A stretch of 64,000 nucleotides of DNA from positions 109,193-173,192 of the forward strand of contig JAKAJD010000003.1 of NCBI GenBank assembly GCA_021813945.1, read 5' to 3'. The DNA is from a bacterium. Its GTDB lineage: Bacteria > Patescibacteriota > Microgenomatia > Curtissbacterales > GWA2-41-24. This document shows positions 41,675 through 64,000 of the stretch, one piece after another (within the stretch, counting starts at the first letter, position 1; every line of letters starts with the position of its first letter). Made by a program: the position numbers and the translations under genes. The notes beneath the pieces are model-generated. The model was not told where the DNA came from. It searched no databases and was given only the letters and a program-made list of their open reading frames with translations.

Positions 41675-41712
41675 TATTGAAATTTCGAATTGATTCTTGT
41701 AAAATTTGCAAC

Positions 41713-41826: not shown

Positions 41827-41834
41827 ATTAATTT

Positions 41835-48514: not shown

Positions 48515-48543
48515 TTGACAAGAATTATAGAGGGTGCTAAATT
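48515..48543 (+). promoter_or_regulatory. promoter-like TTGACA-17-TAAATT in the non-coding island
   Basis: TTGACA at 48515-48520. TAAATT at 48538-48543. A terminator lies about 55 nt downstream. Confidence 0.35.
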
Positions 48544-48549
48544 CTTAAG

Positions 48550-48624
48550 GCAGGCTGAAAGTTACATCTATAGAGATATGGATGTTTAAAAAGCAGAAGC
48601 CTATTTCACATAGGCTTTTGTTTT
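48550..48624 (+). ncRNA. candidate small RNA (about 75 nt) between the promoter-like element and the terminator hairpin
   Basis: Bounded by a promoter-like element and the terminator gaagcctat-ttcac-ataggctt + TTGTTTT at 48596-48624. No ORF. Confidence 0.25.
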
Positions 48625-48775
48625 AGAAAAGACCACGTTTTTCCCAAAAGGAGAGATCTGGGATTTTTAAAACCTATTTGTTTTTCAAAAAGAAATCAAT
48701 AGGGAAAACAAGATAAGAAAAGAGCATCACTACCGCAGACTGAAACTCGAATAGCAATGCTCTTTTGAGGTGTAA

Positions 48776-48815
48776 GGGAAGCGACTTAGGGCAGCTAAGT
48801 TGCTTTCCTTTTTTA
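48776..48815 (+). terminator. rho-independent terminator-like hairpin (14-bp stem, GGCAG loop, T6)
   Basis: gggaagcgacttag-ggcag-ctaagttgctttcc followed by ttttttac. Preceded by a second hairpin at 48720-48767. Confidence 0.4.
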
Positions 48816-48976
48816 CATTAGAACATCTTTACAACCCTTGTCAAGGGGTAATGTCAAATTGGTTCTATTTAGCCTCAAATTGCCTCCATTTTTCTTCCAG
48901 AACAAGCTATTATGAGTAGAAAATTTATCCAATAATTTTGGCGTTGTGAAAATGCGGTTTTGGGTCATTATTATTG

Positions 48977-49052
48977 TTAAGGACAGGCCTTCTTATATGC
49001 AATTTTTAATTTTAAATTTAAAATTTTAAATTTTCTGCGTCCTGTCCTTTAA
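48977..49052. repeat. REP-like inverted pair (ttaaggacagg ... cctgtcctttaa) enclosing an AT-rich (aattttaaattt)n loop
   Basis: The arms are complementary. The loop contains aatttttaattttaaatttaaaattttaaatttt. Confidence 0.5.
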
Positions 49053-49102
49053 TCCAAGTTTTGGTACCGCCAAATCTGTTGATAAGTTAAACAATCGCGG
49101 TC

Positions 49103-49117
49103 TTAAGGTCAGGCCTT
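49103..49117. repeat. REP-like unit ttaaggtcaggcctt followed by a T run
   Basis: Member of the AAGG-N-CAGGCCTT family. Confidence 0.45.
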
Positions 49118-49263
49118 TTTCTAAGATTTTGCTTAAGCGAAGACTTGCCAAGTGGTTCCTCTGATGTAAGCTATAAAGCCCTATGTCAGCCTTTGCCTTC
49201 GGCAAATCTGACGTAAGACGTAACTAGATTTCCTTATTTTAAGGAAGTTATGTCTTATAGTAC

Positions 49264-49292
49264 TTGACAAGGTTACTTAGTTAGTGTAAAAT
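49264..49292 (+). promoter_or_regulatory. sigma70-like promoter TTGACA-17-TAAAAT about 45 nt upstream of the 49337 ORF
   Basis: TTGACA at 49264-49269. TAAAAT at 49287-49292. Confidence 0.45.
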
Positions 49293-49336
49293 GCTCGACC
49301 TATAACTGGTTTTCTGTCCAGTTCCAAAGAAAATAA

Positions 49337-49663
49337 ATGACAAACATGCCCAAAAATAAGCACGTTTCGAGGGAAGTTCGCGAGTTTGTTTATGGTTTGA
49401 TGCAAGAGGCTGATCTTGATATTTTGCCTCCCGATTTGTGCCAAAAAATTTATAACGAGTTGCTTATTCGTTTAGATGCCAAACTGACAATAGCAGCAGT
49501 TGGCGCATTACCGGACGACAAGGTAAGCCAATTTAAAAAACTGCTTTCGGAAAATAAAACCACATCTCAAGTTTCCAATTTCTTAAATGAAAATATTCCC
49601 AATGTTGGGGAGGTTTATGCTACGGCGTTTTCAGATTTCAGAAAGGTTTATTTAGGAAAATAA
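49337..49663 (+). CDS. hypothetical 108-aa protein, translationally coupled to the downstream giant protein
   Basis: Its stop lies 1 nt before the ATG at 49665. No motif recognised. Confidence 0.5.
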   Translation: MTNMPKNKHVSREVREFVYGLMQEADLDILPPDLCQKIYNELLIRLDAKLTIAAVGALPDDKVSQFKKLLSENKTTSQVSNFLNENIPNVGEVYATAFSDFRKVYLGK

Positions 49664-49664
49664 C

Positions 49665-52600
49665 ATGGCAATTGATCAAGAAAGAGTAAAAAACCATATT
49701 ATTAGCGCTGAGGTTACCGGCGATACGCTTAGGATTAATGCTGTTCCGCATATAGTAACTGAGTCAGAGGAAAGCCGCAGGAAAAACCGGGACGTTTTGG
49801 CGGACAGGGCAACAATTGCAGGTGCAGCCGAGCGCGGTTTTTTTGGCAGAATGTGGTATGGGTTAACAGAAACTTACCAACGCTTAAGAAGAAGGGATGC
49901 TTTACGGGAACTCCATGATAACGGCAATGACATAAATTTAGGATCAGCAGCACTTGATCGAGCAAAAGATCAGGTCAGGGAAATGGTTGCCCAGGAAAGG
50001 GACGAAATCACCGCCACTGCAATTTCTAGAAATGTTAGCAACGACATAGGTCGTGGTGACATGACTCATGTATTAGATGAGGAAACTGCAGGGACTGAGC
50101 GAGATGAGGAGATTATTCTTTGGGCACGGTCAATTATTTCCGAATACGCGACAGGCCAAATTGACCAAGCCAGGATGCAGGAGCTTTCGGAAAACTTATC
50201 TTGTGAACTACGGGATGCATTGCCGGATCTTTTTGCAAAAACAACGATCGGTTCCGATTTGGTTTATATTGCTGAATCAGCCCGAGATGCATATGTGGCC
50301 AATCAGGAAAGAATTAAAAATTTAGACTTGGATTTGCAGATTTGTTTCGGACGGGTTGATGCCGGTATGGCAACTGCCGAAAAAAGAGATTTTGCAGACA
50401 AGATTGTTGATTGGTCTCAAGGAGGAAGGGCAAGGGCAGTTTTGGTGAACCCTTTTACTATTGGAGCCACCGCAAGTGCGGTAGCTTTTGGTGCTAAAGC
50501 ACCTTTTAAGAGCGTTCCGGTAATTGGTGGTATCGCTGGCGGTGCTTTTGCGGCTGTAAGGCGCTGGTCTAAAGAAAACAAAGATAGGGATTTAAGGATT
50601 AGGGAAGAAGAAATTGGCTATGAGATTCCGGAGCCTGCACAACACGCTGGTGTAGAGAGGGTTCTTTCGGGACTTGTTGGCCAAACAGATTTTAGGAAGA
50701 CTTCTTACCAACCTAGGTCCGCATTAGAAATGAGGGAAGAATTTGAAAGGCTTTCCAGCGCTGATGCTGCGGAAAAGGGAACACAAACATGGCAGGAAAA
50801 CGCTTTAAACTTGCTTGCAGATACTTCTGTTAGACTAGATGTTTCTGATGGCACTGCCGGTTTAATTCGGTATGGTCAAAGGCGTGACGCAAACGGACAA
50901 GTTGAAGTTAGCGGCATTTCAACAATAAACCAGGACAGGCTGGCTTTGATTTTAGCTGCCAGGGAAACTCAAAGGCAGTTAGTCGGCGAAATCGGCCAAA
51001 ACGATTTTGATACTAGGTATGAAGCTGTTGAGAGTCGTATTTTAGAGGAGCTTGAAGGGTGTATCAAAAAAGCAGATTCTAATTTTCATAAAAGTAGGGC
51101 TTTGATGAGTTTTCGTTCGGGCCTATTTGGAGCCGGGGTTGGTATAACGGGCGGATTTGCAATTCATGAAGTAGGGGAAGGAATCGAACATGTTTCCAGA
51201 AGAGTAGCAGATGTATTTCATCAGGCTCATGAACAAAGAGTTGTTACTGACCAGAAGGATGTTTCTCTGGGCCATGGAAATGTGATCAATGCCGATGCTA
51301 CAGCTGCCGGCCATCAAGGTCTACAGGTTGATGTTGCTTCCGGTGTTAATGCCCATTTTGATGCAGCAAAGCACACTCTTTCGGTTGATGTGCCGGCAAA
51401 TGGGGCGGATGCTGCCAAACATTTTGATATTGCTTATCAGCCTGGTATGAATGCAGACGAGATCCATGCTGCACTTGTTAAAGCCGGCCTTGACGGTAAA
51501 GTTGACATTTTACATTCGGCTGGTGTCCCTCATTTAAGTACAGAAGATATTTTAAGGCAGGACTATTTGGCACAGCATCATTTAGTCGATGTCACAAACC
51601 AACCGCACGGGATAGATTTCGGCCACGCACAATTTTTGGGTGATAAGCATGAATACAACGAACTGACGCTCTACCAGCAAGATGCAACGCATTGGTCAAT
51701 GGGCCCGCACGGTTTGGACGGATCGGCCCTTAAACCTTTTGTTTACAAAAATGAGCCTGCATGGCCTGACCCATCTATTGCCGCGAACGCACCAGTTAAC
51801 CCTGATTCATTAGTTGCTTTTTACCAAATAACGGATAGCCACGGCCAGCTTCATACCATTTTGGCACCCCAGAATGGCGGGCATTTTACCTTGCCGCAGG
51901 AGTTTGTTGATCCGGCAACCGGCAAAGTGGACGGAGTTTCCATCATAGGCTACGGCATGGTTAAAGACGCGCATGGAAAATTGATTGACGGAAACCAGGT
52001 TATTGCTCATCCGGAGCTTATGAACGGTGCAACTTTGCATTCGATGGCTTCGGTGCCTTTAGAGCAAAAGGGTCACATGATTTCGCAAAATTTATCCACA
52101 GTCAAAATTTCTGATTTAACCGCACATGTTACAGGGCAACACACGGAAACAGTTGAGGCTTCAAATAAATTTGTTTTTGACATTCCGCCAATTGCAACGC
52201 CTTTTGCGCCAAGGCTGTTTCCTAATATAGCGGAACCTCCAGTACCACCGGAGCCGCCATATTATGCACCAGGCGAAGGTTATCAGAAGTGGATTGAATC
52301 TAGAGATCTAAACCGTACGAAATATATTAAATCTGATTCTGGAATTTGGGTTGATCCTGAGGGCAATCCGGTTGTACGCGATGTGGCGAGAGAAAGGCAA
52401 GAAGTTTCTGATTATTTATCTTCTCAGGAAGATAGTTACAGAGAAGAACTGAATTCTGTTGCTGACAGTTTACCTGAGATGTCAGATGAAGCAAGAGTTG
52501 TAATTTGTATTCCAGCAAGGATGGAAGAAAAGAATATCAAGAGATTGCTTGATATGTATACGAGGCAAGTTGGCCAGGACGGCTTGCCACTTGATCCATC

Positions 52601-54032
52601 TTTATATGAGATAAACATCCTTTCTAATGGACCTGAAGGGGAGCAGATAGACAATACTGTAAAAGTTGTTCAAAAGTTTCATAAAAAACATCCTCAGTTT
52701 AGGGTTGTGGTTATAGACAAAGCGTTTCCCAAAGACAAAGCTAGTGTAGGTTTGGCTAGAAAGTATCTGACCGATTTAGCACTGGTTAGATCACTAAGGA
52801 GAAATGGTCAAGCAGCCCCGCTTTATATCCAGTCTGAGGATGCAGACCTTGTCAATGTTGATCCTAAGACTGTTGTTAGACTAATCGATAAATTTGATGC
52901 AGACCCGGCTATTGATGCATTAAGGGGAAAACAGGACAGGAACCCGGATGTTCTAATGAACAACGACTTATTGTTTTTCCAAAGAAGGCTTTGGGATTTT
53001 GGCGAAATTATGCTAAGGAGTAAAAAGTATAGAGAGGGATCCAAGGGTGATTTTACATGGAATAGAGTAGTAACCGGTGGTTGGAATACAGCGTTTTCTG
53101 CAGAAGTTTACGCGCTAATTGGTGGATACAACGAAAATGCCCGTATTGGTGAAGATATGGATATCGGTAATAAGATTTCTCTAATTAGGGGTGATGCGGG
53201 GGAGCCAAATGTAGAGACTATTAAGACAGTTGCTTCAAGAACTGATTCAAGCCCACGAAGGTTTATAAAGGCAATTGCCGAAAGGACAAATCCTTACGAC
53301 AATTTTGATGATCAAACTTTTAAGAAACTTAAAGATGGAGAGTTATTGGCCAGAATAAGAGCATTTGCAAGAATTTCGGAGGAAAATAAAGGGACTTTTG
53401 AGACTTATGCAACTGGTAATTTAGCCTTTTTGGTCTCTGTTCTGAAAGATCAAGATGAAGCGAATAAATTATTTAGGAGAGTAATGGGTTTTGTGGGCTT
53501 CAGAAATGGTGATTTTGAGATTGAGAATGGACATGTGAAGATTTTAAACATAAATAATTTTAAGGCAAGCGTTAATTCATACAGGGAAAAGAAACAAACG
53601 GAATCGATCAGAAAAGTTGTGAGGAAAGTTTGGCGCAGAGGTTCTAGCACAAAGGAAACGAAAAGAGAAAATACTTTAGGTATGTCGAAGGAGAATTTCG
53701 AGGAAGCAGCTAGGTTTGCGGCAACTAAGAGTTCTGCTGAGCAAGAAAAGAGATCGCTTTATGAATGGATGGTACTCCTTAGTGCTGCAAGAGATCTTGG
53801 TGTCGAATCCGAAGACGATGAAGAATTAGATTATTTGTCGGGTTTTCTTCCAAGTAATCGTGCGGTGAAATTAAGCGGAAAAATGGCTGAAAAAATGACA
53901 AAGCATGCGGCAATTGCGGAAATGTCACGAATGAGTCAAGAACCACCCAAAGTGAGCAAGCTTGCAAATATAGGAAAGAAAGTTGTACAATCCGTGCCTG
54001 TTGCTAAAAAGTTGACCGCTAGAACAAGCTAA
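49665..54032 (+). CDS. giant (1455 aa) multidomain protein: N-terminal helical region, TM hairpin, His-rich middle region, Pro-rich linker and C-terminal GT-A fold glycosyltransferase domain
   Basis: The GT-A motifs are VVICIPARMEE (like xxIIPAYNE), VVVIDKAF, the DXD-like IQSEDADLV, and TGGWNTAFSAEVYALIGGYNENARIGEDMDIGNKI (like GGFDE...GEDxDL). Hydrophobic segments lie at about aa 255-300 and 495-515. Confidence 0.6.
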   Translation: MAIDQERVKNHIISAEVTGDTLRINAVPHIVTESEESRRKNRDVLADRATIAGAAERGFFGRMWYGLTETYQRLRRRDALRELHDNGNDINLGSAALDRAKDQVREMVAQERDEITATAISRNVSNDIGRGDMTHVLDEETAGTERDEEIILWARSIISEYATGQIDQARMQELSENLSCELRDALPDLFAKTTIGSDLVYIAESARDAYVANQERIKNLDLDLQICFGRVDAGMATAEKRDFADKIVDWSQGGRARAVLVNPFTIGATASAVAFGAKAPFKSVPVIGGIAGGAFAAVRRWSKENKDRDLRIREEEIGYEIPEPAQHAGVERVLSGLVGQTDFRKTSYQPRSALEMREEFERLSSADAAEKGTQTWQENALNLLADTSVRLDVSDGTAGLIRYGQRRDANGQVEVSGISTINQDRLALILAARETQRQLVGEIGQNDFDTRYEAVESRILEELEGCIKKADSNFHKSRALMSFRSGLFGAGVGITGGFAIHEVGEGIEHVSRRVADVFHQAHEQRVVTDQKDVSLGHGNVINADATAAGHQGLQVDVASGVNAHFDAAKHTLSVDVPANGADAAKHFDIAYQPGMNADEIHAALVKAGLDGKVDILHSAGVPHLSTEDILRQDYLAQHHLVDVTNQPHGIDFGHAQFLGDKHEYNELTLYQQDATHWSMGPHGLDGSALKPFVYKNEPAWPDPSIAANAPVNPDSLVAFYQITDSHGQLHTILAPQNGGHFTLPQEFVDPATGKVDGVSIIGYGMVKDAHGKLIDGNQVIAHPELMNGATLHSMASVPLEQKGHMISQNLSTVKISDLTAHVTGQHTETVEASNKFVFDIPPIATPFAPRLFPNIAEPPVPPEPPYYAPGEGYQKWIESRDLNRTKYIKSDSGIWVDPEGNPVVRDVARERQEVSDYLSSQEDSYREELNSVADSLPEMSDEARVVICIPARMEEKNIKRLLDMYTRQVGQDGLPLDPSLYEINILSNGPEGEQIDNTVKVVQKFHKKHPQFRVVVIDKAFPKDKASVGLARKYLTDLALVRSLRRNGQAAPLYIQSEDADLVNVDPKTVVRLIDKFDADPAIDALRGKQDRNPDVLMNNDLLFFQRRLWDFGEIMLRSKKYREGSKGDFTWNRVVTGGWNTAFSAEVYALIGGYNENARIGEDMDIGNKISLIRGDAGEPNVETIKTVASRTDSSPRRFIKAIAERTNPYDNFDDQTFKKLKDGELLARIRAFARISEENKGTFETYATGNLAFLVSVLKDQDEANKLFRRVMGFVGFRNGDFEIENGHVKILNINNFKASVNSYREKKQTESIRKVVRKVWRRGSSTKETKRENTLGMSKENFEEAARFAATKSSAEQEKRSLYEWMVLLSAARDLGVESEDDEELDYLSGFLPSNRAVKLSGKMAEKMTKHAAIAEMSRMSQEPPKVSKLANIGKKVVQSVPVAKKLTARTS

Positions 54033-54051
54033 AATTCGACAGAAGATTAAT

Positions 54052-54669
54052 ATGGCTATTTATAAAAAATCAAAAAAGGAACCAGATATGCTCAATTTAG
54101 TTAAATTTGGCTGGAAGGCCGGATCAACTATAGTTGTTGCCATCCTGGTTTTTGGGAGCGTTATATTCCTACTTTCTAAAAACGCTTCTGCTTCGGAAAC
54201 TGTAACCCAAACCCGAACACAAACGCAGACCCAAACACAAGAGTCTTGTGACAGCGACAATGATAACGGTACTGACCCAAGCGATGATGTTTGTCCGACA
54301 CCAACACCAACACCGTCAGCAACACCGAGTCCTACTCCTACTCCTACTCCTACCCCAACTCCGACGCCAAGTCCAAATGTAGGTGGACAAAGCCAGAGCC
54401 AAAACCAAACACAGAACAATAATCAAACCGTTAATGTGACTGTTGTTAACCCAACTCCTACACCAAGAGGCGCAACCCAGACTTCAACTGTCAAAAAATC
54501 ACCTGAAACTGGTCCATCAGTACTTTCGATGGTAACGATGTTTGGCATTTTGCCTTTGGGGTTTTTGCTTGCAAGATACCAACTGGGAAAGCGAAGAATA
54601 GTGCCGGAGGAAATTAGTCTTTCAACATTTGGAAACCGATTGGTCGGAAAGAGGTCAAAGAGGGCGTAA
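54052..54669 (+). CDS. TP/TQ-repeat cell-surface protein with an N-terminal TM/signal anchor and a C-terminal SPETG + hydrophobic + KRR sorting-signal-like segment
   Basis: TQTRTQTQTQTQ..PTPTPTPSATPSPTPTPTPTPTPTPSP low-complexity linker. The C-terminus reads KKSPETGPSVLSMVTMFGILPLGFLLARYQLGKRR. Confidence 0.55.
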   Translation: MAIYKKSKKEPDMLNLVKFGWKAGSTIVVAILVFGSVIFLLSKNASASETVTQTRTQTQTQTQESCDSDNDNGTDPSDDVCPTPTPTPSATPSPTPTPTPTPTPTPSPNVGGQSQSQNQTQNNNQTVNVTVVNPTPTPRGATQTSTVKKSPETGPSVLSMVTMFGILPLGFLLARYQLGKRRIVPEEISLSTFGNRLVGKRSKRA

Positions 54670-54804
54670 GAAGGAGCCTTCCCCCAAGTAACGGGGCGAG
54701 GAGGCGCAAGGGGCGTATGAGTTACATACGACCTTTTAATGGGAGCATGTGTAGGGCAGGCATGTGCTCCCTTTAAAGGGGTTTACCGGATAAGATAACT
54801 GTTA

Positions 54805-54833
54805 TTGACAAAAGGTTTTTTTGAGGATAGAAT
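54805..54833 (+). promoter_or_regulatory. sigma70-like promoter TTGACA-17-TAGAAT upstream of rho
   Basis: TTGACA at 54805-54810. TAGAAT at 54828-54833. Confidence 0.4.
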
Positions 54834-54902
54834 CGTTTTGGCTCCTGATGTAAGTTCCCAAAACAAGTGAGGGAAAGTTTTTCGAAAATAGTATTGTAAT
54901 TT

Positions 54903-56228
54903 ATGCCAACTAAAGTTTCTGTGAAAGTTAAAAGCAAGGACGATGCACCAGCTATTGGTGAGGTACAGCCAGTGGAGGAGACGATGACAAGTTCGGTTAT
55001 TGATTTAAGATCCAAACCATATTCGCGACCAGACAATGGACAAGACGATCCAAGGCGAGGTAGGTCTTATCAAAATTATGACGACAGAGATGAAGAATAC
55101 CAAGGCGGACGCGATGTCCCAAGCATGGAAGTTAAAGGAATTTTGGACATTATGGGAGACGGCCATGGATTTTTAAGGCCAAAGTTTAGGCCTTCGGACG
55201 AGGACGTCTATATTTCCGCATCGCAAATCCGCAAATTTATGCTGAGGCCTGGTGATGATGTCATTGGTCTTGGCAGGCCTCCCAAGGAAAGCGAAAGATA
55301 CTACGGACTTTTAAAGGTTGTTAATGTTAATGGGGTAGATGCCGAAAAGCAGGAAAAAAGGCCAAAATTTGAACAGCTGACCCCAATTTATCCTAATGAA
55401 AGATTAAAGCTGGAAACAGGCAAAACGCCGCTTTCAACCAGAATGATCGATATTATTGCCCCGATCGGTAAAGGTCAACGAGGAATGGTAGTTTCGCCGC
55501 CAAAAGCAGGAAAAACTACGGTTTTAAAAGACATTGCCAGGGGAATTTCCGATAACTTTCCAAAAGTGCATTTGATGGCAGCTTTAATTGGCGAGCGGCC
55601 GGAAGAGGTTACGGATATTTCCAGATCGGTAAAAGGTGAGGTTATTGCTTCCAACTTTGACGAGCCGGCCGAATACCAAACAAGGGTTGCCGAGATTGCT
55701 TTGGAGCGAGCTAAAAGACTGGTTGAGAGAGGGCAGGATGTTGTCATTCTTTTGGATTCAATTACCAGGTTAGCAAGGGCTTACAATTTGTCAGTTCCGC
55801 CATCAGGGCGAACTTTAACCGGAGGTTTTGACCCGGCAGCATTGTATCCGCCAAAGCGCTTTTTCGGTGCAGCCAGAAATTGCGAAGAAGGCGGATCATT
55901 AACAATAATCGGCACAGCTCTTATCGACACAGGTTCCAGAATGGACGATTTGATTTATGAAGAGTTTAAAGGGACGGGCAATATGGAGTTGCACTTGGAC
56001 AGAAAACTGGCCGAACGCAGAATTTATCCATCTATCGATGTTGAAAGATCTTCTACAAGACAAGAGCAACTGCTTTTTTCGGAAACAGACTACAAGAAGG
56101 TTGTTACCATGAGAAGGATGATTTCGGTTCTAAACCCGGACGAGCGAACAGAGATTTTAATAGACAGGCTTTCCAAAACTGCTTCCAATGCCGAATTTTT
56201 GGATGGGTTGGCAAAAGATATCAAGTAA
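54903..56228 (+). CDS. rho: transcription termination factor Rho (with a low-complexity D/R/G-rich N-terminal extension)
   Basis: DGHGFLRP in the RNA-binding domain, Walker A PKAGKTT, and the DSITRLARAYN motif. Confidence 0.9.
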   Translation: MPTKVSVKVKSKDDAPAIGEVQPVEETMTSSVIDLRSKPYSRPDNGQDDPRRGRSYQNYDDRDEEYQGGRDVPSMEVKGILDIMGDGHGFLRPKFRPSDEDVYISASQIRKFMLRPGDDVIGLGRPPKESERYYGLLKVVNVNGVDAEKQEKRPKFEQLTPIYPNERLKLETGKTPLSTRMIDIIAPIGKGQRGMVVSPPKAGKTTVLKDIARGISDNFPKVHLMAALIGERPEEVTDISRSVKGEVIASNFDEPAEYQTRVAEIALERAKRLVERGQDVVILLDSITRLARAYNLSVPPSGRTLTGGFDPAALYPPKRFFGAARNCEEGGSLTIIGTALIDTGSRMDDLIYEEFKGTGNMELHLDRKLAERRIYPSIDVERSSTRQEQLLFSETDYKKVVTMRRMISVLNPDERTEILIDRLSKTASNAEFLDGLAKDIK

Positions 56229-56254
56229 CGTTTCCACTTAAACTATCGCTATCT

Positions 56255-56306
56255 CAAGGTCAGGTCTTCTGCCTTGTGTCAGCAAATGTTAAGGCCTGAC
56301 CTTTGT
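56255..56306. repeat. REP-like element (aaggtcagg ... cctgacctt inverted pair)
   Basis: Begins 27 nt after the rho stop. Shares the 14-mer tatctcaaggtcag with the element at 57597. Confidence 0.55.
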
Positions 56307-56332
56307 AAAAAGGTTGACGTACCTCCAGGCGG

Positions 56333-56383
56333 TTAAGGCCAGGCCTTAACCAAGATTCGCCCAGGCAAAGGCCTGGCCTTTTT
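56333..56383. repeat. REP doublet (ttaaggccaggccttaa ... aaaggcctggccttttt), terminator-like
   Basis: Two inverted GGCC(A/T)GGCC palindromes 20 nt apart. The second is followed by a T run. Confidence 0.6.
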
Positions 56384-56446
56384 GCTGCTTTCGGTTTTGA
56401 AAATCGCACTTTTTCTGGTAGTATGTGATGTTGGAGCCGACTGCAA

Positions 56447-57559
56447 ATGGACCAACGCCCCTTAATCTCTGAGTTTTTTTCTTTTATACGAGACCTGTTT
56501 TTTTATATTACCCACAGGCTTCATAAGACTGGTCTAAATTTCGAAAAGGTCAAAAATTTTGTAGTGGATATGCTCATGGTAAGACGAGGGGCCAACACTT
56601 CGCTTTTTGTGCACTTTTCAATTTTAGGTTTGGCGGCAGTTGTTCTTATCGGAGGAGGCGTATTTTCTTCAAGCTCTGTAGTTTCAGGTTCTTACCCGGG
56701 AGTTGCGGTAAACCCGCTGGTTGCCTCGTCTTCCGAGGAAGCAACTGCTCAAGGTGTAATCACCTCGACTATTACGCCAGTTACGATAGTTTCCGATAAG
56801 CCCAGAGACAAGATAATTGACTACGAAGTAAAAAGCGGGGACACGATTGCATCTATTGCCCGGGACTGGGGTGTTTCGCAGGAAACCATTATGTGGGCTA
56901 ATGACTTTTCTTCTAACAGCCGTCTGACGATTGGCCAAAAGGTTAAAATACTGCCGGTTTCCGGAGTTTCGCATACGGTAGTTTCCGGAGATACAATTTA
57001 TACGATAGCCACAAAATACCGCGCCAGTGCACAAGCTATTATTGATTTCCCATTTAATGATATCGGTGACGATTTCCAGCTCCATGCGGGTGATGTTTTA
57101 ATTGTTCCCGACGGTGCTCCACCGGCACAGGCTAAGCCGGCGCCAACTCAATATATCGCTCCTGACCAGCTTAATATTCCAATTGAGCAGCTGGGGAGTG
57201 CTCAGTTTATCTGGCCTGCGGCTGGAACGATTACACAGTACTTTTCCTGGTACCATCCGGGAGTTGATATTGCCAATTTGGCGGGAGGGGCTATTCGGGC
57301 TTCCGATTCTGGAACGATAGTTCATGCCGGCTGGGATTCTTCCGGTTACGGGAATATGATACTAATTGATCATGGCAACGGTTTTGAAACCAGGTACGGT
57401 CATCTTTCCGTAATTTATGTGTCGGTAGGGCAAAAAGTCGGAAAAGGTGATGTTTTGGGAATGATGGGTTCTACCGGAAGGTCAACAGGGACACATTTGC
57501 ACTTCGAGATTTACAAAGGCGGAGCAAGGTATAATCCGTTGTCGTTTTTGGGGAAATAA
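56447..57559 (+). CDS. LysM (x2) + M23 family metallopeptidase, membrane-anchored
   Basis: YEVKSGDTIASIA and HTVVSGDTIYTIA LysM motifs. M23 HPGVDIA...GYGNMILIDHGNGFETRYGHL...GSTGRSTGTHLHFEI. Confidence 0.85.
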   Translation: MDQRPLISEFFSFIRDLFFYITHRLHKTGLNFEKVKNFVVDMLMVRRGANTSLFVHFSILGLAAVVLIGGGVFSSSSVVSGSYPGVAVNPLVASSSEEATAQGVITSTITPVTIVSDKPRDKIIDYEVKSGDTIASIARDWGVSQETIMWANDFSSNSRLTIGQKVKILPVSGVSHTVVSGDTIYTIATKYRASAQAIIDFPFNDIGDDFQLHAGDVLIVPDGAPPAQAKPAPTQYIAPDQLNIPIEQLGSAQFIWPAAGTITQYFSWYHPGVDIANLAGGAIRASDSGTIVHAGWDSSGYGNMILIDHGNGFETRYGHLSVIYVSVGQKVGKGDVLGMMGSTGRSTGTHLHFEIYKGGARYNPLSFLGK

Positions 57560-57649
57560 ACTACCGCTTTAGGTGTTATCAAATTAACAAGTTATTATCT
57601 CAAGGTCAGATCTGTGTAAATCGGTACAGTTTTAGAATCAGGCATTGGG

Positions 57650-57706
57650 GGTTAAGGGCAGGCCTTAACCTGGGAAATTGCGGAACAAAGGCCTGCCCTT
57701 TACTAA
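57650..57706. repeat. REP doublet (ttaagggcaggccttaacc ... aaaggcctgcccttt)
   Basis: Perfect 13-bp complementary arms aagggcaggcctt / aaggcctgccctt, 22 nt apart. Confidence 0.6.
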
Positions 57707-57748
57707 GATCTAGAATCTTTTGACCGACATCTACTATACTTTCTTTTA

Positions 57749-59875
57749 ATGAGAAAATACCTGCCGGTTATTCTGGGCGTTTTTTCTTTTCTGCTGCCGC
57801 TTGGACTTTACTTAAAAACGCTTTCGCCAACTTATATTCCGGTTGATTCGGCCGAGTTTACACTTTGTATTAAATTCTGGGGCCTTTGCCATCCGCCGGG
57901 GTTTCCATTTTATATTTTCTTGGGGCATATTTTAACTTCAGTTTTTACCTTTGGAAGCCTTATTTTTAGAGTTAATTTTCTTTCAGCTTTGTATGCGGCC
58001 ATGACAATTTTAGTTGTATATATGACCCTTCTTCGTGTCGGCGTGAAAGGACCTTTGGCGTTTTTGGTTTCAATGATTTTGACGGTTTCAGCAGCTTTTT
58101 GGGAATATTCAATTTCTGCAGATGTCTTTTCGTTTGCAACTTTGCTTTTAGCACTAACTTTCCTTTTTACGTTTTGGGAGAAGCCGATACTTGCCTTTTT
58201 GGCTTTGGGATTTTCGGCTTCCCATTTTTACATTACGGTAATTTTAGTGCCGATTCTGATTTGGTATTTTAGGAAAAAAGGGGATAAGGGAGACGGAGGA
58301 AACAAAATTTGGAATTTTAGCTGGAAGGGAATTAAATTTGGAGATCTGGTAATTTGGGGAATTTTTTTCAGCTTAGGTTTTGTAGGCCAGATTCTCATGA
58401 TAGCCCGCATGCAGCAGGACCCGGTTATCAATTGGGGCCACGCCAAGGGAATAAGCGGCATCATTTACTATCTGAGGCGCAAGGAATTCGGATCGATTTT
58501 TCTGATTAAAAACCCGGTTTTAACCTTTTCGGTTATTAAATACGCTAAGCACATTTACGTTTATCTTCTAGATATTGTGGTGGGATTCGGTGTAGTCTTG
58601 CCTATTTTAGTGCCACTGGGGCTTGCTAAAGAAGGTTTGTGGCGAGAAAAGAAGGTAATTTTTCTGATCTTAAGCTGGCTTTTTGTGATTTTAGTGCAGC
58701 TTTTCTTGCTATCGACCATTGATCCGCTGGGAGCGGATAACCCTTTTCAGATAACTAAGTTTTATTTAGTTTCTTATGTGCCGCTGGTTATTTTAGTAGG
58801 AATGGCTACGCAAAAGTTTGTAGATTGGTTTTTTGAAGGAGATGGTACGTATGTCAATTTGCTTTTGGGGGCGGTGGTCGTTGTTTACCTTCTTTCCAGC
58901 TTTAAATCGCATAATTTGAGCAAAAACTACTTCTCAGAGAAAATGGTTGAAGATGCTATGGATCAGTTGCCGAATGGGTCTGTTGGCATAACAGTTTCCC
59001 ATGTTTTTTACTTCGGAGGACTTTATGAGCAGAAAATTAACGGAAAATATGGCGGGGTGACGCTACTTTATTTCCCGAACGAATATAACCGCGATAACGA
59101 GGGATATCACCCTGATCTTTTTTCCGGAAAGGTGGATGAAGCATTTATTGCCAAGGTTCGGGGAGCAAATCAGCTGGGAAATGCGGAAAACTATATTCTT
59201 GAAACAATCTCCAAAAATCCGGGACGGGACATTTATATTTTGCAAGGAACGTTTGAAGAAGGATTTTTTAAATATCTGGATCCGTATAAAGTACCTTACG
59301 GCTTGTGGTGGAGGGTTGCTAGAAATCCGGCTGAAAAACCGGATTTGGAGAAAATTTTTGGCCTACTTTCGGGACTTAGAAACGACGGCGTCAAATACAG
59401 CGATTTTGCTTTTAAACAGCAAAAGATGGACACGATGCTTTATGCCGTTTCTTATAATTCGACCGGAGTTTTGGCGGCAAAGTATGGGCAATGGGATAGG
59501 GCAGTCGCGTTTCTTGAAAAAAGCGATGCAGTGCAACCGGGGAATGCCAATGTTAAAGCAGAAATGGAGCTTGTTAAAAAGGTGAAGGATTTATGGGGGC
59601 GGGAAGGGGATCTTTTAGGGGCTAAAGATGTTTCGACGTTGTCTGATTTGGGAAACGGACTTTTTAATTTGGGAAATTACGAAGGGTGTGTAAAGGTTTA
59701 TGCGGACGTTTTAAAAATTGAGCAAAAGGCTCCCGATTACAATAACTTGGCTTCGTGTCTTGCTTCGTCCGGGAATCTTGCTGAAGCAAAAGCGAATTAC
59801 GAAAAAGCGTTGGCTTTGGATCCAAATCTGGATATGGCAAAACAAGGTTTGGCGAAGGTGAATGAGCAAAGATAA
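57749..59875 (+). CDS. polytopic membrane protein (DUF2723 / GT-C-like glycosyltransferase architecture) with C-terminal TPR repeats
   Basis: About 11 TM helices in the N-terminal 380 aa (DSAEF...GLCHPPGFPFYIFLGH). C-terminal TPRs (LGNGLFNLGNYEGCVKVYADVL..., NLAEAKANYEKALALDPN). Confidence 0.5.
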   Translation: MRKYLPVILGVFSFLLPLGLYLKTLSPTYIPVDSAEFTLCIKFWGLCHPPGFPFYIFLGHILTSVFTFGSLIFRVNFLSALYAAMTILVVYMTLLRVGVKGPLAFLVSMILTVSAAFWEYSISADVFSFATLLLALTFLFTFWEKPILAFLALGFSASHFYITVILVPILIWYFRKKGDKGDGGNKIWNFSWKGIKFGDLVIWGIFFSLGFVGQILMIARMQQDPVINWGHAKGISGIIYYLRRKEFGSIFLIKNPVLTFSVIKYAKHIYVYLLDIVVGFGVVLPILVPLGLAKEGLWREKKVIFLILSWLFVILVQLFLLSTIDPLGADNPFQITKFYLVSYVPLVILVGMATQKFVDWFFEGDGTYVNLLLGAVVVVYLLSSFKSHNLSKNYFSEKMVEDAMDQLPNGSVGITVSHVFYFGGLYEQKINGKYGGVTLLYFPNEYNRDNEGYHPDLFSGKVDEAFIAKVRGANQLGNAENYILETISKNPGRDIYILQGTFEEGFFKYLDPYKVPYGLWWRVARNPAEKPDLEKIFGLLSGLRNDGVKYSDFAFKQQKMDTMLYAVSYNSTGVLAAKYGQWDRAVAFLEKSDAVQPGNANVKAEMELVKKVKDLWGREGDLLGAKDVSTLSDLGNGLFNLGNYEGCVKVYADVLKIEQKAPDYNNLASCLASSGNLAEAKANYEKALALDPNLDMAKQGLAKVNEQR

Positions 59876-60070
59876 AGGGCAGGCACAGATTTCCAATGCC
59901 GCTCCTCGGATTAAGAATCTTCGGTATTGATATAATTTGTACATGCGGTTTTTGGAATTCATTGCCTCAGTTTTTTTACCGCCTTACCATGTAAAATGGT
60001 TTCTTTTAATACTTTTTTTGTTCCTCTTTGCTTATTTTGGCCCTCCTTTAATAAATTTCCTTTTCGATAA

Positions 60071-60079
60071 CACTGATAT
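60071..60079 (+). promoter_or_regulatory. extended -10 element TGaTATAAT ending 9 nt before the obg ATG (possible leaderless transcript)
   Basis: cacTGaTATAATttctccATG. There is no SD between the -10 and the start codon. Confidence 0.3.
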
Positions 60080-60088
60080 AATTTCTCC

Positions 60089-61069
60089 ATGATCGATTAC
60101 GCAAAAATATCTATTAAGGCCGGTTACGGTGGAGCAGGGTCTGGTTCTTTTGAACATATTAAGGGCAAGCGAAGAGGAAAAGCTGATGGTGGAGACGGTG
60201 GCCGAGGTGGGAACGTTTATTTTGAAGCCACAGGTGATTTGAACACTCTGGAGCCATTCAGGTTTGAAAAAAACTACCAAGCCGAGGCAGGTGGCAATGG
60301 TCTTTCTAAGCGGCGTAAGGGGGCGGAAGGAAAGGATCTTGTTATACGGGTGCCACTTGGAACCCAGGCGTCGAGCCAATCCCAAACTTATGACTTAGTG
60401 CAGCTTGGAGAAAAGGTGCTTATTGCTCGAGGTGGACAGGGAGGCCGGGGAAATTGCCACTTAAGAGATGAGTATGGTAGAAGACCTTTTCGAGGGGAAG
60501 TTGGTGAAGCTGGAGAAGAAATTGAGATAGTTTTGGAGCTTAAACTTATTGCGCAAGTAGGCCTTATCGGACTTCCGAATGCTGGAAAATCGACACTACT
60601 TTCAAAGTTAACTTCGGCAAAACCCAAAATTGCCGATTATCCTTTCACAACTCTCGAGCCGAATATAGGGGTAATCGACAATTTAAAATTTAAAATTTCA
60701 ACTTTAAAATTAGTAGTTGCCGACATTCCCGGACTTATTGAAGGGGCAAGTGAGGGCAAGGGGCTAGGAGATTTGTTTTTGAGGCATATTGAAAGGACCA
60801 GGGTTTTAGTGCATTTGGTTGATGCCACGGGTAGCGATGCGTTTGGAAGTTACCAGACAATCCGGCAAGAACTAAAGGCATACTCCAAAGAACTTGCCAA
60901 AAAGCGGGAAATTGTCGCAGTTAACAAAATTGATCTTGCCGAAACTCAGGTTATTGACCGGATAAAAGGGGAATTTAGCGCCAAGAGAAAAAAGGTTTAT
61001 TTGATATCGGCGGAGACAGGTGAAGGTGTTGACGAGTTGGTACGAGGGATTCTGAAGAGTTTAGGTTAA
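60089..61069 (+). CDS. obg: GTPase Obg (short form, no C-terminal OCT/TGS domain)
   Basis: The Gly-rich N-terminal Obg fold (AGYGGAGSGSF...GGDGGRGGNVYFEA). The G domain has GLPNAGKSTLLS, the TTLEPN G2 region and DIPGLIEGAS. Confidence 0.85.
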   Translation: MIDYAKISIKAGYGGAGSGSFEHIKGKRRGKADGGDGGRGGNVYFEATGDLNTLEPFRFEKNYQAEAGGNGLSKRRKGAEGKDLVIRVPLGTQASSQSQTYDLVQLGEKVLIARGGQGGRGNCHLRDEYGRRPFRGEVGEAGEEIEIVLELKLIAQVGLIGLPNAGKSTLLSKLTSAKPKIADYPFTTLEPNIGVIDNLKFKISTLKLVVADIPGLIEGASEGKGLGDLFLRHIERTRVLVHLVDATGSDAFGSYQTIRQELKAYSKELAKKREIVAVNKIDLAETQVIDRIKGEFSAKRKKVYLISAETGEGVDELVRGILKSLG

Positions 61070-61085
61070 GGGCAGAAAGCTTGGG

Positions 61086-61136
61086 CTAAGGCCAGGCCTT
61101 AGCAGAGGATTTACCAGGTTAAAGCCTGGCCTTTTA
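61086..61136. repeat. REP doublet (ctaaggccaggccttag ... ttaaagcctggccttttac)
   Basis: Lies immediately after the obg stop. The stop itself sits in gttaagggcag. Confidence 0.55.
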
Positions 61137-61175
61137 CCACGTAGTTATCTATCGTCTATTGTCTAAAATCTAAAT

Positions 61176-63497
61176 TTAGAAGCTTGGTTTTTGGGTTGGA
61201 GCTGGGCTCGGTTGAGCTGAAGCTTCCGGGATTGGACTTGGAGAAGGTGAGGGGCTGGCGGATGGTTGGCCCTGTTGTTGTTTAGCGGCTTGTTCTTGAA
61301 GGTCCCTGAGTTGTTTGTTGTAGTCGTCTAGCTTTTTGTTGATATCTGAAAGCGCCGGGTCGTCTGATGGCAGGTATTGTTTGGCTAGTGACAATTCACT
61401 AACAATTGTGGGGACGCTGCCTTTTTTATCAATCAAAAGATTGGCCAGGTTGTAGTGTGCCGGGCCGTAATCACCCTTTGTTATGATGGCATCTTCAAAC
61501 TTTCTTTGGGCTAAATCGGCATTTCCCAACCTCTGGTAAAGAACGCCAAGCCTGTTGTGCAGAATTGGGTTTTGGGGATCTAAAGATACCGCCTGGGCTA
61601 ATGTGTTGGTGGCGTGGACATCTGCTCCTTGGACTGCTCCGATTAAGGCTTGATATACCGCTGCTAACGTTTCCCAGTTGGAAACATTGGCAGCTGAAAT
61701 GCCTGGAAGTTTAAGGGGCAAAATTTGATAGCCTGAGGCGGCTTTTCCTTGGTCTATGGCAACTTGGGCCAGTTGACCTAAAAGTTGTTTTTGGTTGTCG
61801 TTTAAGTCCTTTTGTTGGCTTAGATTGATAGCAGCGTTTAAGGTTGTTTGGGAAAGGGCACGGTGATAAGTGTCGATTGCCGGATTTGCCTGAATGGCTT
61901 GCTGCAGGTATTGAACGGTTTTATTGCCGTTATTGGATTGGGCAGCCAAAAGTGACTGGCGGTAGTAGTATTCGGCCCGGTAAGCATTAACCTGATAAAC
62001 AAGTGCTAAAAAGGAGGCGACTACAACAATAATGCCGAAGATAGCCGGAAGGATTTGAGATTTGGCTCCTTTGGCGCCTGCTTCTGTTTTAAGAAGAGCT
62101 TCACCTTCTCCGGGTGCGGCAATGGGAAACCAAGAGAAACGGTTTTTTAAAGCGGCCAGTTCCAGGGTTACTTCAAAGACGTAATCTTCATTAGTGGCTT
62201 TGGCCAGAACTGCCAACATTGAAAGGGCTAAAAAGAATGACGCATAGCTCGCAAATGAGGACACTGTAAAGAAGCTGGCAATAACATATCCCAAAATAGC
62301 AGCGGCAACTGGCAGGTAGACAAGAGTGTGCTGGCTTTTGAAAATCAGAGACCAGATGAATCTTAAGACGACTACCATAAGCAGTAGGTAAGCCAAGACT
62401 CCAAAGACGCCGGTTGTGGCGATTACATCGGTAAAGTCCGAAGAAGATTTATCGAAACGAACGGCCCAGCTTTGACCACCATTCATAACACGGGGCTTAA
62501 GCTGTGTGTAGACGAACTGGTAGGTGCCAGGGCCAGTCCCAAAAAGCGGTTTTTTACCGATCGCCTGGGCGGCGATGTCCCAAGCAGTTCCAGCCGGAAC
62601 AAGCTGTTCTTTGGGGGTGTCGATTTGTTGCTGCTCGGTTAGACCTTGATCCTTAGAAATGATCCATTGATAGAGCGTACCTTGAGCAACCTGCGGAACA
62701 AAGCGGATTACCAAAAAGAGGATGATAAAAACTGCCAAGACTGCGGCGTGACCCTGCTGGGTTTTGGTCAATTTTACCCTTAAGGTTCCGACAGTTAAAA
62801 AGATGAGGGCGACTGCAAGACCAATGTAGGCCGGTAGATCATTTATTAATATAAAGGAGAAAGCAAGAATCAGGGTGCAGCCGGTTGCGATTATTCTTAT
62901 CAATTTATCTTTTTCATAAATGGCCCAGGAGGCAGCAATTGGGATAACAAGAGCTTCCAAAAGAGCCAGGCGGTTGATGATGCCGACCGGGTTAAAGGAG
63001 CGGATATGTGCAAAATCAAACGGTAGGAAGGCACCAAAGTAGGAAGTTATGGCAACAAGAGCACCGATTGTGGTTGCGCCGACGAGGGTCCAGAGAACTG
63101 TGTTAACTTGGCGTCTGGTTTTTAAGGTTGCAACAGAAACAAAGTAGAATGCAGCAATTATTAAAAGAGGAATGAAGCTGGGCCAGGCCCTGCCCTGAAC
63201 TCCGAAAAAGGAGATGAATTGGTCAATTGAGGAGTAGGCAGCGATAAAATAGACGGCCAAAATCACAAGGATTGGAATGTCTAGCGGGGTTCTAGTAAAG
63301 ACGACTCTTTTTTCAAAAATCATTTTGACTGCCCAAACTATAAAGGAAGCAATTGTAAGTATTAAAAGGGCTGTGAATTTATTGAATTCAAAGAATTCAG
63401 AGGTTGTTGGCAGGAAGAAAAGGGGAGTTAGAAAGGCTGCGGCAACAACCAGCGAAAAGATTATGGATTGTGACAGCTTTAAGAAATTCTCTTTCAT
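61176..63497 (-). CDS. large polytopic membrane protein (O-antigen ligase / Wzy_C-like architecture) with C-terminal TPR repeats and a Ser/Pro-rich tail
   Basis: About 12 TM helices in the N-terminal 480 aa, with a periplasmic-loop-sized hydrophilic insert. C-terminal TPR-like repeats (NRLGVLYQRLGNADLAQRKFEDAI..). Tail QPSASPSPSPSPIPEASAQPSPAPT. Confidence 0.45.
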   Translation of the reverse strand: MKENFLKLSQSIIFSLVVAAAFLTPLFFLPTTSEFFEFNKFTALLILTIASFIVWAVKMIFEKRVVFTRTPLDIPILVILAVYFIAAYSSIDQFISFFGVQGRAWPSFIPLLIIAAFYFVSVATLKTRRQVNTVLWTLVGATTIGALVAITSYFGAFLPFDFAHIRSFNPVGIINRLALLEALVIPIAASWAIYEKDKLIRIIATGCTLILAFSFILINDLPAYIGLAVALIFLTVGTLRVKLTKTQQGHAAVLAVFIILFLVIRFVPQVAQGTLYQWIISKDQGLTEQQQIDTPKEQLVPAGTAWDIAAQAIGKKPLFGTGPGTYQFVYTQLKPRVMNGGQSWAVRFDKSSSDFTDVIATTGVFGVLAYLLLMVVVLRFIWSLIFKSQHTLVYLPVAAAILGYVIASFFTVSSFASYASFFLALSMLAVLAKATNEDYVFEVTLELAALKNRFSWFPIAAPGEGEALLKTEAGAKGAKSQILPAIFGIIVVVASFLALVYQVNAYRAEYYYRQSLLAAQSNNGNKTVQYLQQAIQANPAIDTYHRALSQTTLNAAINLSQQKDLNDNQKQLLGQLAQVAIDQGKAASGYQILPLKLPGISAANVSNWETLAAVYQALIGAVQGADVHATNTLAQAVSLDPQNPILHNRLGVLYQRLGNADLAQRKFEDAIITKGDYGPAHYNLANLLIDKKGSVPTIVSELSLAKQYLPSDDPALSDINKKLDDYNKQLRDLQEQAAKQQQGQPSASPSPSPSPIPEASAQPSPAPTQKPSF

Positions 63498-63573
63498 TTT
63501 AGGCTATATATTCATATAAAATTAGACAACTTTTTTTGTCAAGTACCAAATTGTAACTCCTATGTTTTAGCTT

Positions 63574-63590
63574 CCAAGGCCTGGCCTTGA
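63574..63590. repeat. REP unit ccaaggcctggccttga immediately 3' of the RAYT gene
   Basis: GGCCTGGCC palindrome core. Same family as 56333, 57650 and 61086. Confidence 0.55.
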
Positions 63591-63634
63591 AACGCTGATT
63601 GGAAAAAGTTATAGGGCAATGGTGAGATGATTGT

Positions 63635-64000
63635 TTAGGAATCGTGGGGGAAAATGAGGTGCTGTATTTTATATTGATATTCCTGTTCGGCTTTCACGAA
63701 TTCTCTGTATGAGTTACGTGCTGCATCAATACTAGCATTTTTTGTTTTGAACATCGCCAAAATAAATTTAGTATCCACAATATCATCAACTTTCTCTTCA
63801 ATGTAGGAAGGATAGCTGCTCCAGGAATATGAAGGGAGTTTGGTGACCAGTTTTTTTGGGTTTAGGTGAATATATCTGGAAAGGTGCATTAGATATTCAT
63901 CCTTATTTATGATTTTGGCTTTAAAGCGATCTTGAAAGACATGGCCAATTTGATCATATTTTTTGTTGAAGTACATCGAATATGCAGTGTGGAGCCTTTG
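63635..64000 (-). CDS. REP-associated tyrosine transposase (RAYT, IS200/IS605 TnpA-like Y1 HUH family), C-terminal part; N-terminus beyond the window end
   Basis: GHVFQDRFKAKIINKDEYLMHLSRYIHLNPKKL...YSWSSY closely parallels the RAYT consensus GHLWQGRYKS...YLL.L.RYIE.NPV...YRWSSY. The reading frame stays open to position 64000. Confidence 0.75.
   Translation of the reverse strand, partial: QRLHTAYSMYFNKKYDQIGHVFQDRFKAKIINKDEYLMHLSRYIHLNPKKLVTKLPSYSWSSYPSYIEEKVDDIVDTKFILAMFKTKNASIDAARNSYREFVKAEQEYQYKIQHLIFPHDS

Follow-up and report, generated by a model that had tools for sequence, protein, structure and literature searches.

Short GC-rich palindromes recur behind genes in the right-hand part of a 64,000-nt stretch of contig JAKAJD010000003.1 (the window), close to a minus-strand open reading frame (ORF) that an earlier note on this DNA had read as a RAYT, a tyrosine transposase that goes with repetitive extragenic palindromes (REPs). 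The locus raises the question of whether repeats and gene form a REP-like system in a bacterium of the candidate phyla radiation (CPR); to our knowledge, REP/RAYT-type systems have been characterized almost only in Proteobacteria. Our analysis favors, at a probability of roughly two in three, a REP-like palindrome family accompanied by an apparently single-copy, vertically inherited HUH-Y1 transposase gene that is flanked by the same unit, in a Curtissbacteria-like CPR host. From analogy with characterized relatives, we infer that the enzyme may mobilize the repeats.

The sequence of the window was inspected at 56000–64000 and 48250–49700. A contig reached via the neighboring Wzy_C-like protein (L211; NCBI assemblies GCA_021839605.1 and GCA_021843035.1) has 0 mismatches to the window across an overlap of 12,825 nt and runs 9.5 kb further, and a second contig (L214), with 0 mismatches across 12.7 kb, covers DNA left of the window start. 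The repeat census of this genome, made on the window and these extensions, covers about 81.5 kb and 24 units.

Sequence, placement and folding of the repeat units

The core of the repeat is AAGG-N-C(A/T)G-N-CCTT. Counts were judged against shuffled sequence, and a search of the window with the degenerate core AAGGSCWGSCCTT, allowing up to one mismatch, revealed 10 occurrences where 0.52 were expected, a number reached by none of 100 shuffles; GGCCWGGCC occurred five times exactly (0.47 expected). An unbiased k-mer scan of the window ranked the core and its neighbors at the top for over-representation at lengths 9, 10, 11 and 12, and the window together with the 9.5 kb of L211 beyond it (73.5 kb) contained 21 units with up to one mismatch against 1.3 expected. 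The repeats are real, palindromic and far above chance; the GGCC(A/T)GGCC REP-like family of the earlier note stands, and its coordinates proved correct, each one, on inspection of the sequence. The absolute number in the window is small, which would be the argument for a compositional artefact, namely GC-rich palindromes in an AT-rich genome beside an unrelated IS200-like pseudogene. However, no shuffle attained the observed counts, identical units of 23–29 nt recur, and the gene, which is undamaged and keeps its syntenic place, evolves under purifying selection, with the Y---NP motif of class 2 and not the Y---Q of IS200 (see below); the shuffle tests and the orthologous loci effectively refute a chance origin. 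Rfam gave no match for the repeat regions (whole window at gathering thresholds; E ≤ 1 for 48200–49400 and 54600–64000), ruling out a described RNA family as the explanation. Avoidance of restriction sites (CCWGG and GGCC lie inside the core) was also considered, and was dropped since other lineages keep AAGG-N-CWG-N-CCTT with a different N.

All 11 copies in the window are intergenic, just 3' of genes, and fall within 48979–63588; many lie 19–95 nt downstream of stop codons, some with a T-run behind them. The intergenic, post-stop placement anticipated by the earlier note held in the window; in the 17.5 kb of this genome covered next to the window, at least six copies are intragenic. Three further copies, 4–8 kb left of the window start and 56–60 kb from the gene, spread the family across at least 75 kb of this genome, and a restriction of the repeats to the neighborhood of the transposase gene was rejected on their account.

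Stems of 9–13 bp are predicted for four inverted doublets and for one hairpin with a long loop, with folding energies 2.4–5.2 standard deviations below those of shuffles, and the variable base of the doublets is complementary between the arms, with C/G, G/C, T/A and A/T all seen. The doublets that the earlier note had placed at 56333–56383, 57650–57706 and 61086–61136, the related form at 56255–56306, and the long-loop hairpin all fold (z from −2.4 to −5.2). The long-loop hairpin (48977–49052) has the arms AAGGACAGG (from 48979) and CCTGTCCTT (49041–49049), separated by some 50 nt of AT-rich loop, and folds at −12.6 kcal/mol (z = −5.2). It is followed by a solitary unit from the core search, AAGGTCAGGCCTT (49105–49117), which precedes a T-run; no partner arm was found for this unit, and alone it folds no better than shuffles. 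Behind rho, 20 nt past the stop codon, begins the doublet at 56248–56306, in which TATCTCAAGGTCAGGTCTT and AAGGCCTGACCTT are separated by a spacer of about 22 nt and pair in a 13-bp stem (z = −3.8). The next doublet (56333–56383; GTTAAGGCCAGGCCTTAAC, a 15-nt spacer and AAAGGCCTGGCCTTTTT) likewise has a 13-bp stem and carries a terminator-like flag at 56361–56376.

A solitary and partly decayed unit, TATCTCAAGGTCAGATCTG (57594–57614), has two mismatches to the core and a 14-mer in common with the 56248 unit; this 14-mer, tatctcaaggtcag, was found at 56248 and 57594, as noticed before. The doublet AAGGGCAGGCCTT ... AAGGCCTGCCCTT (57650–57706; z = −3.5) has an orthologous doublet in a closely related genome (L001), and a compensatory change, C:G to G:C, sets the two apart. 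Two half-units have stop codons embedded in them, in agreement with the earlier reading: TAAAGGGCAGGCA (59873–59885), which holds that of the 57749–59875 gene and whose heptamer AGGGCAGGC appears in the k-mer list, and GTTAAGGGCAG (61065–61075), which on sequence inspection holds that of obg. Where the obg and Wzy_C genes converge, the space between them holds a doublet with one mismatch (61086–61136; z = −2.4). Within the Wzy_C gene, at 63181–63189, there is also an exact GGCCAGGCC, inside GGGCCAGGCCCTGCCCTG and without AA/TT flanks, which is either a chance match or a decayed intragenic unit. The k-mer scan additionally picked out tandem runs of the heptamer AAAAGTC within coding regions (28606–28630 and 46020–46041).

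Copies after stop codons may serve as terminators or mRNA-stabilizing hairpins. A rival explanation extends this to the whole family: the hairpins would be elements selected by the host (terminators, bidirectional terminators, mRNA-stabilizing stem-loops or promoter modules), their similarity would be maintained via function or gene conversion, and the transposase-like gene would be domesticated in another role and would not move them. The placement of the window copies, all intergenic and mostly at 19–95 nt past stops, agrees with this explanation, as do the one terminator-like copy, the several copies with T-runs behind them, the doublet between convergent genes, the TTGGAA that the unit flanking the transposase gene supplies 16 nt from TACAAT, and the persistence of copies at orthologous sites despite saturated synonymous sites. 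A terminator, however, needs structure and not a conserved 13-mer, and the core is kept across many lineages with only two positions varying; moreover, the count of terminator-like sites in the region, 24, is not significantly above that in shuffles (18.5 ± 4.7).

Other structured sequences were seen in the same part of the window. Two tandem hairpins (54735–54800) stand upstream of the rho promoter (54805–54833); their stems differ compensatorily among the window and contigs L001, L002, L087 and L088 of related genomes, and what is retained in the loops is (T)AGGGCAGG(C) or GGGCAGGA, the heptamer of the repeat variant AAGGGCAGGCCTT. A further hairpin (48774–48810) has a 16-bp stem and the loop TAGGGCAGC and is followed by a T-run. 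It lies in a segment of about 1,055 nt (48282–49336) with no plus-strand ORF of at least 60 aa, which is unusual for a small genome; the segment also holds the hairpin at 48977–49052, the unit at 49105 and other hairpins, and its Rfam matches are at chance level. The plus-strand ORF at 49665–54032 (1,455 aa) has no Pfam family at E ≤ 0.01 and is conserved in sister contigs.

The transposase gene and its flanking units

The minus-strand ORF at 63635–64000 comprises the 3' part of the transposase gene (121 codons plus stop); it stays open to the window end, its translation reads ...GHVFQDRFKAKIINKDEYLMHLSRYIHLNPKKL...YSWSSY..., and it contains the catalytic-tyrosine motif LSRYIHLNP. L211 completes the gene, the remainder of which lies at the equivalent of 64001–64237, to a protein of 200 aa with the HUH motif in CLMPNHVHLL, the catalytic-tyrosine motif SRYIHLNP, and the further motifs HVFQDRF and SWSSY. 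The earlier note had placed the HUH half outside the window and had let the assignment as a transposase hang on its presence upstream; the half was found in L211, and PNHVH together with SRYIHLNP decides the point in favor of that assignment.

The homologues returned by a protein search are some 200 aa long and match Pfam Y1_Tnp; the highest identity among them is 83% over the fragment. The full-length protein matched Pfam Y1_Tnp at 62.6 bits (cut-off 23), while the 121-aa fragment alone gave no Pfam match and only 23.6 bits with NCBIfam. A single-sequence search of PDB gave no match; a search with the family profile placed E. coli TnpA_REP (4er8) first. The AlphaFold model of an orthologue (P0001; 86% identical, pLDDT 86.5) also had 4er8, E. 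coli TnpA_REP with a REP hairpin, as its best structural match (TM-score 0.67, root-mean-square deviation 2.5 Å), followed by the IS608 and ISDra2 transposases, and all of its top 30 PDB matches were Y1 transposases. In this model, P0001 carries the HUH-Y1 nuclease fold, a predicted beta-sheet with the HUH and a helix with the catalytic tyrosine, and in addition a helical tail of about 55 residues. Judged from its motifs and the predicted fold of its orthologue, the ORF belongs to an intact gene for a Y1 HUH transposase, a member of the RAYT superclass.

The gene has the repeat unit on both sides. On the 3' side, at window positions 63566–63595 (minus strand), lies the unit whose minus-strand reading is CGTTTCAAGGCCAGGCCTTGGAAGCTAAAA, with a hairpin stem of about 10 bp; CGTTTCAAGGCCAGGCCTTGGAAGCTAAAAC there sits 47 nt past the transposase stop. 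This unit is kept at the same site in L001, L002, L087 and L090. On the 5' side, in L211, the distance from the end of the unit TTTCAAGGCCAGGCCTTGAAGGCTAAAAG to the ATG is 28 nt, and a third copy precedes the upstream peptidyl-prolyl isomerase gene. The earlier note had reported a REP unit close to the 3' end of the gene, and to this the second unit on the 5' side can now be added. Units flank the gene on both sides in L211, L001, L002, L088 and L090, and only downstream in L087. The stem of the flanking unit varies compensatorily between lineages (AAGGCC/GGCCTT, AAGGGC/GCCCTT, AAAGCC/GGCTTT). Through its TTGGAA, the flanking unit may add a −35-like element to the neighboring promoter. We also observed an extended −10-like box, TGnTAYAAT, 6–7 nt before the ATG and right after the upstream hairpin (L211 9232–9260, the window equivalent of 64238–64266; also in L001 and L002), a placement that suggests a leaderless mRNA and a gene that its own hairpin may regulate.

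In six related genomes, with 65–86% protein identity, the transposase gene keeps the same company: Wzy_C, obg, a TMEM260-like glycosyltransferase, an M23 peptidase and rho. Comparison of the transposase gene gave pN 0.08 against pS 0.70 (dN/dS about 0.04), and across the orthologues pS was 0.70–0.93, which is saturated, and pN 0.08–0.24. Saturated pS together with low pN indicates that the gene is old, vertically inherited and functional; the substitution rates show purifying selection on it to be strong, and its syntenic position is fixed. Saturation of the synonymous sites also implies that conserved non-coding units were not kept merely through lack of time.

The host itself is, judging by its Rho protein, a Curtissbacteria-like bacterium of the CPR (Microgenomates): Rho of the window is 100% identical to a protein of the source assemblies, and its identity to proteins of Candidatus Curtissbacteria is 88%, which bears out the earlier description of a CPR-like genome. 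The 16S (19722–21214), 23S (36835–39880) and 5S (41712–41828) rRNA genes are unlinked: 16S and 23S lie about 15.6 kb apart, with genes for proteins and tRNAs in between, and 23S and 5S 1.8 kb apart, with two ORFs in between; this arrangement is consistent with a CPR genome. Elsewhere, L211 has a gene with a weak 23S_rRNA_IVP match.

Units within genes and in other genomes

The numbers and types of units differ within the same intergenic spacers between the window and its closest relatives, L001 and L002, and in the more distant L087 and L088 the spacers are 16–55 nt long, or the genes overlap, without units. Units also lie within genes. Doublets at 3626–4034 of L211 (about 69464–69872 in window coordinates) stand in frame in a very long ORF (more than 1,588 aa) and encode EGQAL...EGLAL in linkers; L211 and L001 share one doublet of about 50 nt at a site of this ORF where L002, L090 and L087 have none. 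In L214, a doublet (3791–3838) is in frame in a RecF/SMC_N-like gene of 370 aa, and a single unit (6228–6240) in the gene of a 603-aa ATP-dependent DNA ligase divides the Pfam ligase match into two stretches. An example of the peptides that such intragenic units would encode is EGQALTSGGSSQEGLALS. Comparison of these genomes demonstrates that the repeats differ in presence or absence between relatives, in-frame insertions included. One spacer of L002, between the TMEM260-like gene and obg (14269–14701), has 433 nt of unrelated sequence against 213 nt in the window.

Metagenomic contigs were scanned for doublets with the pattern AAGGNCAGNCCTT-N8-38-AAGGNCTGNCCTT, which gave at least 120 contigs; the counts that follow refer to the 124 doublets on 120 contigs among the matches listed. 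The two free positions of the core were complementary between the arms in 123 and 120 of the 124 doublets, the core variants included TCAGA, ACAGT, CCAGG, GCAGC and mixed forms, and the flanks of the doublets were not conserved. Extra units occurred on these contigs at about 0.04/kb, around 100 times the compositional expectation. The contigs come from groundwater small-cell fractions with a median GC of 0.43; their taxonomy is what we infer from such features. In gene context, established with greedy non-overlapping ORFs plus Pfam checks, 59 of the 124 doublets (L091–L210) lie deep in long ORFs, and nine of ten ORFs checked were recognizable housekeeping genes (Leu- and Ile-tRNA synthetases, UvrA, SMC, topoisomerase I and NAD-ligase). 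In alignments of leucyl-tRNA synthetase (LeuRS), as in those of SMC, the doublet appears as an insertion, and the LeuRS genes differ in it.

These intragenic copies bear on the explanation by host-selected hairpins. About half of the metagenomic doublets and at least six units of the present genome are in frame in genes (LeuRS, UvrA, SMC, TopA, LigA, RecF-like, DNA ligase), where a terminator would be harmful, and the unit on both sides of the transposase gene in many lineages is a further point against that explanation. Taken with the terminator counts above, we consider that explanation unlikely.

The genes of the enzyme's homologues were compared at 80 loci among the matches listed, from species-representative genomes of many phyla; the best of them is 55% identical, and the close clade lies outside this sample. 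Within 250 nt on either side of these genes, hairpins of the form AGG-N5-CCT reach a density of 1.49/kb against a background of 0.17/kb, a roughly 9-fold enrichment, and at 20 of the 80 loci they stand on both sides of the gene. The stem outside the invariant AGG:CCT covaries, at 0.417 against 0.144 in shuffles, with none of 500 shuffles as high and slid controls at 0.08–0.14. Next to a more distant homologue, in L038 (Blastocatellia), AGGGGTCAGGCTTGA occurs in inverted copies. On this comparison, flank hairpins are a general property of the enzyme clade, and their proliferation is lineage-specific.

A second rival explanation accepts that the palindromes are mobile or self-propagating, like MITEs (miniature transposable elements with inverted repeats) or Rickettsia palindromic elements (RPEs), but has them moved by another enzyme or by replication and repair, the flanks of the Y1 gene having collected copies by chance. 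The in-frame intragenic behavior does resemble that of RPEs and CGTC-type REPs, which have no known dedicated transposase (PMC3733652), and no Y1 gene was seen on 111 of the 120 doublet contigs. Since most doublet contigs are short, however, a single-copy gene would be expected on fewer than 1 in 100, so that the nine contigs of the 120 (846 kb) that do carry a transposase homologue represent a roughly ten-fold excess. In three lineages, the core variant next to the gene is the variant dispersed on the same contig, and chance accumulation cannot account for flank hairpins that are general in the enzyme clade, also where the hairpin is not dispersed. This explanation seems to us quite improbable.

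A broader proposal would be that the domesticated Y1 enzymes of this large orphan class in CPR (RAYT Group 1, TnpA_Y1 subclass 2.1 or TIRYT; see below) actively mobilize the conserved hairpin AAGG-N-CWG-N-CCTT, and that REPIN-like doublets have been spread in this way through many lineages of Patescibacteria, in frame into essential genes such as those for LeuRS, UvrA, SMC, TopA and ligases. We put it forward tentatively, with the balance leaning against it. If it were true, it would provide the first candidate for a dedicated enzyme of RPE-style intragenic palindromic elements and a tractable recognition motif for the Group 1/subclass 2.1 enzymes.

Class of the enzyme and comparison with known systems

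TnpA_Y1 subclass 2.1 corresponds to RAYT Group 1 of Bertels and has the signature NHVH (or NH[YF]H), W[EQ]/FQ, YIELNP/Y[IV]HLNP and an SS tail (PMC6006769, Table 1). The enzyme of the window has NHVH, FQ, YIHLNP and WSS, a motif set that places it with the TIRYT/Group 1-type enzymes; the motifs of Groups 2/3, or subclasses 2.2 and 2.5 (DHLH/DH[LF]H, WE/WQ, YIHYNP/YI[VI]ANP), were not found in it. In blastp comparisons with the reference sequences of PMC3733652 (Additional file 5), the window protein matched published TIRYTs at E values of 1e-32 to 1e-21 and 28–39% identity, and canonical RAYTs at 2e-7 to 2e-4. With the orthologue P0001, NCBIfam NF047646 (REP_Tyr_transpos) reached 68.6 bits, below its cut-off of 80, and transpos_IS200 24.8 bits against a cut-off of 55. 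A C-terminal helix-turn-helix (HTH) domain was not detected (Bac_DnaA_C, HTH_23, HTH_28), Y1_Tnp being the only match at E ≤ 0.01; subgroup 2.1.2 is heterogeneous with regard to a C-terminal HTH extension (PMC6006769). By its motifs and similarities, the enzyme is a TIRYT, that is, of RAYT Group 1/TnpA_Y1 subclass 2.1, and not a canonical Group 2/3 RAYT; the earlier identification as a RAYT is therefore right as to the superclass of Y1 HUH enzymes and wrong if the canonical groups are meant.

Several observations weigh against a palindrome family served by this enzyme. Previous work found no REP-like sequences beside subclass 2.1 genes (Quentin et al. 2018; PMC6006769), and REPINs with Groups 2 and 3 only (Bertels et al. 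2017; PMC5581495; bioRxiv 10.1101/2021.07.10.451892). In the present genome, of which about 81.5 kb with 24 units were covered, the first 49 kb of the window (1–48978) has no copy at all. No GTAG or CTAC adjoins the window units, nor was a conserved cleavage tag (GTAG, CGTC) or a target-site signature seen, and the asymmetric flanks show the two units beside the gene to be in direct and not inverted orientation. Several copies are orthologously conserved between species with saturated synonymous sites; such copies must be old, and they may be retained for a host function and not be actively mobile. Among the matches listed, finally, the flank hairpin recurs within ±10 kb at only six of 34 homologous loci.

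Other published work points the opposite way. TIRYT genes have terminal inverted repeats (TIRs) on their flanks, in which GGGGWSAS is often present (Di Nocera et al. 2013; PMC3733652), and a few genomes contain moderately abundant TIR-derived families in dimers, for example that of S. maltophilia (PMC3733652). The fit of the present units to GGGGWSAS is partial: the flank core AAGGCCAGG agrees at 5–6 of 8 positions, the dispersed variant AAGGTCAG at 6 of 8, and the core AAGG(T/C)CAGG resembles it only partly. A literature search of incomplete coverage found no paper tying REPs, REPINs or RAYTs to repeats of CPR/Patescibacteria. Intragenic REPs and RPEs, and repeat families linked to TIRYTs, have been described before; what appears to be new is such a system in a CPR phylum.

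If the enzyme acts as E. coli TnpA_REP and IS608 TnpA do, it would bind the hairpin of a unit formed in single-stranded DNA, cleave it by means of the catalytic tyrosine (SRYIHLNP) and a metal bound by the HUH motif, and occasionally excise units or doublets or copy them to new sites. The present case puts a palindrome family and this enzyme in a genome that has about 1 Mb and hardly any intergenic room, and in which the repeats occupy coding sequence too. It also sets a dispersed hairpin family beside an enzyme class whose DNA partner is disputed, PMC3733652 reporting families for some members and PMC6006769 and PMC5581495 none, and the conserved AGG...CCT stem next to homologues in many phyla offers a concrete substrate for work in vitro. 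For annotation, the units explain variable insertions of 12–20 residues in CPR housekeeping proteins and the unusually long intergenic spacers of this clade.

Among known systems, the IS200/IS605 transposases (IS608, ISDra2) share the HUH-Y1 fold and the logic of hairpin recognition with the enzyme described here, but their Y motif is Y---Q in IS200 and not Y---NP (YIHLNP), and in the present case no tnpB adjoins the gene, which keeps one syntenic site across species. RPEs and intragenic REPs likewise comprise palindromic units or dimers in frame in tRNA synthetases, UvrA and ligases, adding 12–20 residues; RPE/CGTC elements have a CGTC tag and no associated transposase (PMC3733652), whereas the units described here are accompanied by a candidate enzyme and show no CGTC tag. 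The systems formed by E. coli REPs and bacterial interspersed mosaic elements (BIMEs) with TnpA_REP, and by Pseudomonas REPINs with RAYTs, also have short palindromes after genes, inverted doublets that make long hairpins with compensatory changes, and a single, vertically inherited Y1 HUH gene flanked by the repeat, and 4er8 is the best structural match; they differ in that identity between the enzymes is about 20%, and that the present units lack the 5' GTAG, are in direct orientation beside the gene, are intragenic in many copies and have so far been seen in modest number (24 in the 81.5 kb covered), canonical systems having tens to hundreds of copies per genome. In the TIRtron/TIRYT systems, the protein signature (NHVH, FQ, Y[IV]HLNP and a WSS tail) and the single gene flanked by repeats recur, and in a few published cases, such as S. 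maltophilia, the repeat at the flanks doubles as a dispersed family in dimers, as here; in contrast to their long TIRs, the units of the window are short palindromes of 13–25 nt in direct orientation, the enzyme has no C-terminal HTH match, and the host belongs to the CPR.

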